From IMG/VR virus record IMGVR_UViG_2529292979_000027: a stretch of 6,365 nt of DNA. One strand, given 5' to 3'. Source of the DNA: a virus (lineage: Duplodnaviria > Heunggongvirae > Uroviricota > Caudoviricetes). A program made the translations under genes and the position numbers. How positions within the stretch are numbered: position 1 is the stretch's first letter; every line of letters starts with the position of its first letter. The notes under the pieces were generated by a model. The model saw only the letters and a program-made list of their open reading frames with translations. It had not been told where the DNA came from and searched no databases. Of this stretch, positions 4,746-5,279 are shown piece after piece.

Positions 4746-4768
4746 AAAAGTTACACGAAAAGTTACAC
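4746..4768 (+). repeat. two tandem AAAAGTTACAC repeats in non-coding DNA upstream of terS
   Basis: AAAAGTTACAC at 4746-4756 and 4758-4768 (period 12), ending about 22 nt before the terS start. It is the same motif as the array inside terS. Confidence 0.6.
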
Positions 4769-4790
4769 CCCCTCAAAACGAGGTTTTTGC

Positions 4791-5279
4791 ATGGCATTAA
4801 CGACCAAAAAAAAGCGGTTTGCTGATGCGTTATCAAGGGGCGCAAATCCCACGGAAGCCGCTATACATGCGGGATACAGCGAAAAGACCGCAAGGGTTAA
4901 AGGCTGGCAGCTATCCAACGATCCTGAGGTGAAAAAGTATCTTAAGGCTGTAACTTCTGATGTAACTTTTCAGGTTACAAAACCGAAAAAAGTTACAAAG
5001 AAAGTTACCGAAAAAGTTACACCGGAACGGGCATCAATTAACACCATTGAGATGATGGATAACGGCCTACCCGACCCCATCAAAGCAATGGGCAGGATAC
5101 TGATTGACAACATGGACACAGATCCAAAACTGGCTTTAGATGCCGCGTTTAAGCTGGCCCAGTTCACCCACCGCAAGATCGGCAGCATTGGGAAAAAAGA
5201 GGTTAAAAAACTCAATGCCGCTAGTGTCTACTCAAATCGGTTCCCCATCCCTAAGCCACCAACAGACTTAAAACACTGA
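4791..5279 (+). CDS. terS: terminase small subunit (Terminase_2-like N-terminal HTH), 162 aa
   Basis: ATG at 4791 follows GAGG (4779-4782). The N-terminus MALTTKKKRFADALSRGANPTEAAIHAGYSEKTARVKGWQLSNDPEVKKYLKAV matches the small-terminase HTH signature (..L.KQ.RF...Y....N.T.AAI.AGYS.KTA.....LL). The ORF-track start at 4674 would read through the G8 tract and palindrome and is rejected. Confidence 0.85.
   Translation: MALTTKKKRFADALSRGANPTEAAIHAGYSEKTARVKGWQLSNDPEVKKYLKAVTSDVTFQVTKPKKVTKKVTEKVTPERASINTIEMMDNGLPDPIKAMGRILIDNMDTDPKLALDAAFKLAQFTHRKIGSIGKKEVKKLNAASVYSNRFPIPKPPTDLKH
4950..5022 (+). repeat. AAAAGTTACA repeat array inside terS (candidate pac or recognition site)
   Basis: Three tandem 12-bp-period copies lie at 4988-4997, 5001-5009 and 5012-5022, with a partial copy GGTTACAA at 4973-4980. 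Two inverted copies GTAACT(TTT) lie at 4950-4955 and 4962-4970. In frame they encode KVT repeats (VTKPKKVTKKVTEKVTP). Confidence 0.55.

Follow-up and report, generated by a model that had tools for sequence, protein, structure and literature searches.

A short word that recurs at 12-bp intervals both upstream of a small terminase (TerS) gene and inside it raises the question of which protein reads it, and to what end. This arrangement occurs in the IMG/VR virus record IMGVR_UViG_2529292979_000027 (Duplodnaviria; Heunggongvirae; Uroviricota; Caudoviricetes), a stretch of 6,365 nucleotides that is referred to here in its entirety as the window and that supplies the coordinates below unless another record is named. 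To judge from its gene order, the window belongs to an approximately 9-kb satellite of the phage-inducible chromosomal island (PICI) type, resident in Shiga toxin (Stx)-producing Escherichia coli. The repeats are probably a cosB-type TerS recognition array of an HK97-style, HNH-dependent cohesive-end (cos) packaging system, carried by a satellite that has its own terS gene.

The repeat array and its neighboring predicted cos site

Eight copies of AAGTTACA, allowing at most one mismatch, lie between 4746 and 5021, two of them upstream of terS and six within the codons for the TerS linker. Six copies are on the + strand (4748, 4760, 4972, 4990, 5002, and 5014) and two on the − strand (4949 and 4961). 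The features of the region are as follows.

4665-4672, + strand: G8 run, left edge of the conserved cos module; a G-run stands at the same place in all related loci
4700-4717, + strand: conserved box CTGGACACCGCCCCCCGT, homologous to phage cos ends
4708-4717, + strand: predicted 10-nt 3′ cohesive end (cosN) CGCCCCCCGT, by homology to determined ends
4718-4745, + strand: predicted left end of the genome, CTCATTCGTAGAAAATTTTGCTTTTC, the conserved spacer from the cut to the first repeat, by homology and conserved alignment columns
4746-4756, + strand: repeat 1, AAAAGTTACAC, in non-coding DNA, with its 8-mer beginning 31 nt past the predicted cut
4758-4768, + strand: repeat 2, AAAAGTTACAC, non-coding, 12 bp beyond repeat 1
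4791-5279, + strand: terS, small terminase of 162 aa (Pfam Terminase_2, phrog_641)
4949-4956, − strand: repeat 3, inverted (TGTAACTT on the + strand), codons V54-T55
4961-4968, − strand: repeat 4, inverted, codons V58-T59, 12 bp beyond repeat 3; its GTA ACT is identical in 6-7 lineages
4972-4979, + strand: repeat 5, degenerate AGGTTACA, codons V62-T63
4990-4997, + strand: repeat 6, AAGTTACA, encoding K-V-T
5002-5009, + strand: repeat 7, AAGTTACC, encoding K-V-T
5014-5021, + strand: repeat 8, AAGTTACA, encoding K-V-T

This layout agrees with a preliminary description of the locus, which placed two non-coding copies before the ATG and three tandem, one degenerate, and two inverted copies in frame within terS. 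Tandem Repeats Finder assigns a period of 12 to 4746-4768 and 4986-5021, and the repeat finder also reports the inverted arrangement. The second upstream repeat ends 22-23 nt 5′ of the terS ATG (4791). All in-gene copies are in frame and read V-T, the inverted ones as GTA ACT and the direct ones as GTT followed by ACA or ACC. Matches to AAGTTACA with at most one mismatch number 14 in the whole window against 4.5 expected, a count reached in none of 200 shuffles, and eight of them fall within 275 bp, where 2000 dinucleotide-preserving shuffles gave at most five per any 300 bp; the motif was picked after the sequence had been viewed, so that these figures overstate significance, and the comparative evidence given below is independent of them. 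In 28.7 kb of an O157:H7 chromosome, the six exact copies of AAGTTACA all lie at the terS and leader site. Rfam families gave no match in the window.

Immediately to the left of the array, the segment at 4665-4744 is 79-84% identical to the non-coding spacer between the HNH and terS genes of Stx-converting phages such as 1717 and WGPS8. Positions 4700-4736 read CTGGACACCGCCCCCCGT up to the predicted cut and CTCATTCGTAGAAAATTTT beyond it, and the 10-mer CGCCCCCCGT is identical in the Stx2 phage WGPS8. In the Stx1 phage Lys8385Vzw, the cos is CGCCCCCCCT, with the record ending in ...GGACACCGCCCCCCCT and beginning with CTCACGCAGAGAAAAAATT.... For the Acinetobacter phage fLi-Aba03, whose TerS is 31% identical to that of the window, a 10-nt 3′ cohesive end, CGCCCCCCAT, was established by PhageTerm and a heat/cool restriction test (PMC7354433); its record ends in ...GGACACCGCCCCCCAT and begins with CGCACGCACAAAAAAAATTCCC... 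(CGCACGCACAAAAAAAATT...), and the first base of this record, like that of Lys8385Vzw, is homologous to position 4718. The common cos boxes, ...GGACACCGCCCCCC(N)T to the left of the cut and C(T/G)CA... to its right, match the determined genome ends of both phages. PhageTerm classes two relatives as cos with 3′ cohesive ends, with fEg-Aba01 given as "HK97 type" (PMC7354433 for the Acinetobacter phages).

Since the window is homologous to the determined ends of Lys8385Vzw and fLi-Aba03, the cut is placed between 4717 and 4718, and we infer a satellite cohesive end at 4708-4717 with the packaged left end running from 4718. The position is taken from those phage records that start at cos, namely these two, as most Stx phage records are proviral and start elsewhere. 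The first repeat follows the predicted cut by 31 nt in the window and by 29-33 nt in every related locus examined, whatever its motif. The array therefore adjoins cosN on the terS side, as a cosB would, with the satellite cut itself placed by homology. The order HNH, spacer, terS, terL (the large terminase gene), protease/capsid in related phages is the layout of HNH-requiring cos packaging, for which Kala et al. (2014) and Quiles-Puchalt et al. (2014) are cited. Burkholderia phage vB_E192b was excluded from the comparison, as its words of the GTTAA type are few and its record does not start at the homologous cut. HK97 was also considered as a direct homologue of the module and rejected, its cos and terS sequences being unrelated. 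The G-run, about 45 nt left of the predicted cut, varies in length among near-identical islands (L014-L023, L091) and ranges from G7 to G13 in Stx phages.

Conservation of the repeats and their variation between TerS clades

The preliminary description had argued that the motif is selected at the DNA level, a claim that can be examined in relatives. These were gathered from exact-protein look-ups and viral contigs, with TerS proteins sharing 51-65% amino-acid identity with that of the window, and include further E. coli satellites, a complete prophage of Hafnia alvei (HNH-terS-terL-protease/capsid-portal), and contigs from Salmonella and from metagenomes. AAAAGTTACA is retained in every one of them, both upstream of terS and in the linker-coding region, and the order of the in-gene copies, inverted and then direct, is kept across lineages. 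In the non-coding leader, aligned for six lineages, AAAAGTTACAC is the longest invariant run (11 columns) and is conserved better than the cos box. A scan of genome contigs with the TerS alignment gave 37 pattern matches, none of which was confirmed by tblastn.

Within the gene, inverted copies always read GTA ACT and direct copies AAA GTT ACA across lineages, while adjacent codons vary freely. Valine and threonine columns of the motif use 1-2 codons over seven lineages, against 3-4 elsewhere. Pairwise, columns with the same amino acid share the identical codon in 87% of cases inside the motif and 51% outside, figures to be read with the reservation that such comparisons are not independent and that the motif codons were defined from the motif, so that more trust is due to the column counts. 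The most telling case is fLi-Aba03, whose word, AAGTTAAA, occurs three times upstream and three times in terS at +158 to +207, the in-gene copies being in two frames and both orientations and encoding M-L-K, S-L-T, and K-V-K; since the copies stand in different frames, it is the DNA word that is kept and not the peptide. Judged by the fixed synonymous positions, the invariant non-coding run, and these frame-shifted copies, the repeats are selected as DNA, and the earlier argument is borne out. Among close relatives (96-100% identity), one of approximately 33 variable sites falls within a repeat, which is too sparse for a test of motif avoidance. One satellite-like E. coli contig (DASCXQ010000010, locus L005, 5348-6474) has its own HNH gene upstream of cos and carries seven repeat copies in a 227-nt spacer, one of them a hybrid AAATGTTAACACC word.

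An alternative is that only the two upstream copies are recognized and that the in-gene copies are by-products, arising from selection for a K-V-T linker or from 12-bp replication slippage. In its favor, the in-gene copies of the window clade are all in one frame and encode V-T, copy number differs by 12 or 24 bp among close relatives, and the inverted in-gene copies have been lost in two lineages. An instance of such a change in copy number is locus L091, a close relative with a 24-bp deletion at window positions 4987-5010 that removes two units, its tandem run being one repeat short of expected. However, the synonymous positions are fixed at 51-65% protein identity and the codons depend on orientation (GTA ACT against GTT ACA), clades with other motifs have copies at the same gene offsets in different frames and with different peptides, and the 12-bp spacing is present in non-coding DNA too. 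On balance, we consider a by-product origin quite improbable.

The word itself changes between groups of TerS proteins. Five TerS clades share a common cos box and layout and use different words, which are AAGTTACA, TGTTAAC/TGTTTAC, and AAGTTAAA.

Window clade (satellites, the Hafnia prophage, and contigs from Salmonella and metagenomes): AAGTTACA, before terS as well as in linker codons
Stx phage WGPS8: TGTTAAC and TGTTTAC, with two in-gene TGTTTAC copies at +155 and +192
Salmonella phage FSL SP-016: TGTTTAC and TGTTAAC, located in the linker region and at +31, where the start codon of terS is overlapped
Acinetobacter phage fLi-Aba03: AAGTTAAA, three copies upstream and three in-gene at +158 to +207

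In WGPS8, TGTTWAC occurs eight times in 6.4 kb against 1.0 expected, every time between the cut and the terS linker. Each word is absent from the other's module, as no TGTTWAC was found near the cos and terS of the window and no AGTTACA in WGPS8. Some residues of the TerS N-terminal domain are also particular to a clade, such as P20 and W/C/Y39 for the AAGTTACA clade. The word therefore varies in step with the TerS DNA-binding domain and the nick site stays common, as would be expected of a cosB, though this evidence is correlative. In FSL SP-016 (locus L099, 592-606), a palindromic pair of sites, TGTAAACATGTTAACA, sits on the terS start, and the first codons, ATG TTA ACA, contain the recognition word; TerS bound there could also affect its own translation.

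The reader of the repeats and the proposed packaging route

TerS of the window scores 42.4 bits against Pfam Terminase_2 (PF03592; cut-off 26.1), which places it in that family, and matches phrog_641 with an E-value of 1.5e-43. Weak matches to the DNA-binding domain of SF6 TerS were also found, and the N-terminal 55 residues match the helix-turn-helix (HTH) DNA-binding domain of the Terminase_2 family. An AlphaFold model (mean predicted local distance difference test score, pLDDT, of 68.6) has a confident helical N-terminal domain at residues 5-56 and a helical hairpin, the putative oligomerization core, at residues 96-126. Between them, residues 57-84 have a pLDDT below 50 and are predicted to form a disordered linker. 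The in-gene repeats encode residues 54-77, and, as they code for this linker, they are placed where the protein should best tolerate a sequence constraint imposed by the DNA. The terS frame is open upstream to a GTG at 4674, giving a 201-aa open reading frame (ORF) that spans the cos box and both upstream repeats; gene callers could pick this GTG, and the upstream repeats would then be coding. It is an unlikely start, since RefSeq and all homologues begin at the ATG at 4791, GAGG stands 7 nt 5′ of that ATG, and the predicted cos cut would lie inside the longer ORF. One Shigella database protein (P0002) has a different N-terminus, MHGINDQ.

TerS is the likely reader of the repeats because of its N-terminal HTH match and because satellites have no packaging-enzyme gene other than terS alongside the repeats. 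In addition, the position of the sites past the cut matches that of the TerS sites in lambda (cosB) and HK97. The repeats are thus the best candidate for the site by which TerS recognizes satellite DNA, which is the part of the earlier packaging-site proposal that stands. The site is not specific to satellites, however, as the motif occurs in the same places in the complete Hafnia prophage and in other phage-like contigs of the same TerS clade.

Several points weigh against this assignment, beyond the dependence among codon comparisons mentioned above. In vitro, HTH-type TerS proteins of the related SF6/SPP1 family show weak DNA binding of no clear specificity (PMC9611059). The HNH and TerL proteins of the phages have diverged to about the same degree as TerS; for the Hafnia prophage, which belongs to the AAGTTACA clade, TerL is 64% and HNH 63% identical to the WGPS8 counterparts. 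Phage comparisons by themselves therefore cannot name the protein that reads the motif. The motif variants differ at only 1-3 positions, so that any difference between the specificities of the satellite and Stx-phage TerS proteins is hypothetical. The six in-gene copies of the window clade share one frame (V-T), so that some selection on the peptide is possible there, and the lack of both inverted in-gene copies in L005 and L092 indicates that not every copy is essential.

The parallel divergence of HNH and TerL leaves room for a reader other than TerS, whether HNH, TerL, a host architectural protein, or a late-gene regulator of terS expression, and the upstream copies, at 22-45 nt before the start codon, are located where a regulator could act. 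Yet in satellites without HNH and terL the repeats are retained alongside terS, a search for sigma-70-like promoters at 4400-5300 gave none, and six copies lie 160-230 nt inside the gene, which would be unusual for an operator. Nor is the repeat word known to resemble the consensus of IHF or Fis. We therefore regard recognition by another protein as unlikely.

The preliminary description also likened the repeats to the pac site that headful-packaging phages and satellites of the SaPI (Staphylococcus aureus pathogenicity island) type often carry inside terS. With such a site, as in P22 and SPP1, packaging starts near terS and ends when the head is full, with no specific end sequence. TerS does belong to Terminase_2, like that of SF6 and SPP1, which are headful phages, and sites inside or flanking terS are classical for P22 and SPP1 (PMC9611059), a location shared by the two upstream and six in-gene copies here. 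However, the repeats lie 31 nt from the homologue of a cos with experimentally shown 10-nt 3′ ends, and relatives with the homologous module have defined cohesive ends of this kind instead of permuted ones. Moreover, phage relatives have the HNH-terS-terL layout with a TerL containing TerL_ATPase and TerL_nuclease domains, and two are cos phages by PhageTerm. The headful comparison is consequently not upheld, and a site of this kind is very improbable here. That the repeats are iterons of a satellite replication origin is scarcely credible, for although short phased direct repeats are typical of origins, PICI origins sit just after the primase gene, where other repeats are present (3675-3693 and 3798-3819), the array lies a further 1.2 kb downstream of that gene, and complete prophages too contain the AAGTTACA array, with HNH on one side of it and terL on the other.

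From the reading of the repeats as a cosB-type array, we infer binding by TerS, recruitment of helper TerL and HNH, discrimination between satellite and helper, and a candidate helper phage. After replication of the satellite, the N-terminal HTH domains of TerS would bind the AAAAGTTACA words. On its right, the nick site CGCCCCCCGT (4708-4717) is followed by these words at a distance of 31 nt and, about 200 bp beyond, again within the linker codons. The 12-bp spacing could let neighboring DNA-binding domains of the TerS ring take successive words; since this spacing is also present in non-coding DNA, it is not imposed by the reading frame. The bound TerS would then recruit TerL and HNH of the helper through its conserved C-terminal half, which in the satellites is close to that of Stx-phage TerS. 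TerL and HNH would cut cos to leave 10-nt 3′ overhangs, and packaging would proceed rightwards with terS entering first. Resident Stx-type phages have the same nick site, other words (TGTTAAC/TGTTTAC), and another TerS, so the satellite TerS and its repeats could serve as a private address.

The distribution of the two types among complete E. coli genomes can be set beside this proposal. Of 5426 genomes, 1253 contain the Stx-type cos-terS module, in up to eight copies per genome and with satellite carriers included, and full-length terS of the AAGTTACA type was found, at blastn sensitivity across the same 5426 genomes, only in the 220 that bear the satellite. It is plausible that the satellite claims the TerL and HNH of its helper through its own TerS and cosB acting on a common nick site. 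A broader generalization can be offered only tentatively, and we hold it to be possible rather than probable: that this is a cos satellite combining the nick site of resident HNH-type Stx/lambdoid phages with a private TerS and a private cosB situated mostly in linker codons, that exchange of TerS alone suffices to redirect TerL and HNH, and that the layout is ancient, previously undescribed, and widespread in proteobacterial cos phages.

The satellite element and comparison with known systems

The remaining genes of the window are consistent with a PICI-type satellite.

1-210: AlpA-type regulator
1525-1824: DUF4222 protein
1821-3575: D5/P4-type primase
5291-5452, + strand: small ORF of 53 aa with an acidic tail, resembling the TerS oligomerization core
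5442-6365, + strand: capsid-protein homologue reaching the end of the window (Pfam Phage_capsid, 28.4 bits)

The segment 4600-5300 is 100% identical to E. coli O157:H7 chromosomes. The chromosomal copy (L001) lies between yljB and clpS and contains int, the alpA-type regulator, the primase, terS, and the capsid homologue in approximately 9 kb. The element is assigned to the PICI type because its gene order equals that of Gram-negative PICIs; like these, it has the integrase, alpA-type regulator, and primase genes in one direction, a similar length (approximately 9 kb against approximately 10 kb), no tail or lysis genes, and a specific chromosomal site. It is not the capsid-forming PICI (cf-PICI) EcCIEDL933, which is 15.4 kb long and encodes a full capsid and hnh-terS-terL set. 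The satellite occurs in 220 of the 5426 complete E. coli genomes (about 4%), and those listed with it are mostly of Shiga-toxin-producing serotypes, such as O157:H7, O111, O26, and O103.

Two genes downstream of terS may take part in the interaction with a helper. The 53-aa ORF matches positions 89-125 of phrog_641 (E-value 3.5e-7), whereas BLASTP against the window's own TerS gave no alignment, the resemblance to TerS coming from the PHROG profile alone. It is kept directly 3′ of terS in four other loci, and it follows terS in satellites and in one contig in which terL comes next; its product could be a partner or mimic of TerS acting on the helper terminase. Compared with the protease-capsid fusion of the Hafnia prophage, the capsid homologue lacks the protease part and is 24% identical to the capsid domain (E-value 1e-19). 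It is a candidate gene for redirection of capsid size, resembling ccm of cos-type SaPIs. After the primase gene, at the position expected for a PICI origin, 9-bp tandem repeats occur in non-coding DNA, CCCCTCTAC in two copies and AGGTAGAAG in 2.4 copies (3675-3693 and 3798-3819). In the close island relative L091 (TerS 91-96% identical), an AAA_25-type replication protein of 466 aa (536-1936) replaces the D5/P4 primase, which suggests exchange of modules in the replication region.

Individually, several elements of this arrangement are already established, including TerS sites beside cosN (lambda, HK97), sites inside terS (P22, SPP1), and redirection by satellites through their own TerS (SaPIs) or through Rpp. 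In the literature searched, which was incomplete, no description was found of this cos module, of a cosB-type array reaching into terS linker codons, or of a PICI that pairs an HNH-type cos with its own TerS; a Genome Research paper on lambdoid phages and a paper on helper-embedded PICIs contain nothing on the cos module. The way in which TerS recognizes viral DNA is still disputed, chiefly for ring-forming proteins of the HTH type (PMC9611059). The module offers a testable TerS substrate in which the cut is defined, the offset is fixed at 31 nt, and as many as eight phased words vary by TerS clade, and the differences between words make specificity swaps straightforward. Should the proposal be correct, it would provide a natural phased multi-site substrate for resolving how ring-shaped HTH TerS proteins read DNA, as well as a clean case of a protein-coding linker that doubles as a putative protein-binding DNA array. 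Carrier strains are rich in Stx prophages with the same nick site, and diversion by the satellite TerS could affect both Stx phage yield and gene transfer.

The closest parallel is cosB of lambda, whose sites R3, R2, and R1 are bound by gpNu1. As proposed for the window, multiple short words stand just past the nick site, on the terS side, and are read by an HTH-type TerS. Between lambda and phage 21, specificity resides in the cosB-TerS pair and cosN is common. Lambda differs in having a 12-nt 5′ overhang, whereas a 10-nt 3′ overhang is predicted here together with an HNH protein and a TerS of another family; about three quarters of the sites are inside terS here, and no IHF site was identified. 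HK97 likewise uses cos, preceded by an HNH gene and followed by terS-terL, and its TerS site lies 15-29 bp past the cut compared with about 31 bp here (PMC11331095). However, HK97 TerS has no defined HTH and recognizes a single 15-bp site while DNA is threaded through its central tunnel (PMC11331095), in contrast to the up to eight words of 8-11 bp and the Terminase_2-type TerS described here, and the cos sequences of the two are unrelated. SPP1 and SF6 share the Pfam family of this TerS, the contacts of SPP1 TerS flanking the cut at several points, and P22 has its pac site inside the TerS gene (PMC9611059). These phages package by the headful mechanism, unlike the family of this module with its defined cohesive ends.

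Among satellites, SaPIs alter the DNA that the helper terminase recognizes by means of their own TerS and pac, and EcCICFT073 uses Rpp to retarget the helper TerS to the satellite cos. Both resemble the present proposal, yet neither described case covers a satellite TerS acting on the cos of HNH-type phages. SaPIbov5, a cos-type SaPI with Ccm, and the cf-PICIs also exploit cos phages of the HNH type. The capsid homologue of SaPIbov5 resizes capsids, and the capsid-like gene of the window may do so too; SaPIbov5 differs in that it copies the helper cos and uses the helper TerS. The cf-PICIs, for their part, carry the whole capsid and hnh-terS-terL set, whereas the satellite described here carries only terS, the small ORF, and the capsid homologue.

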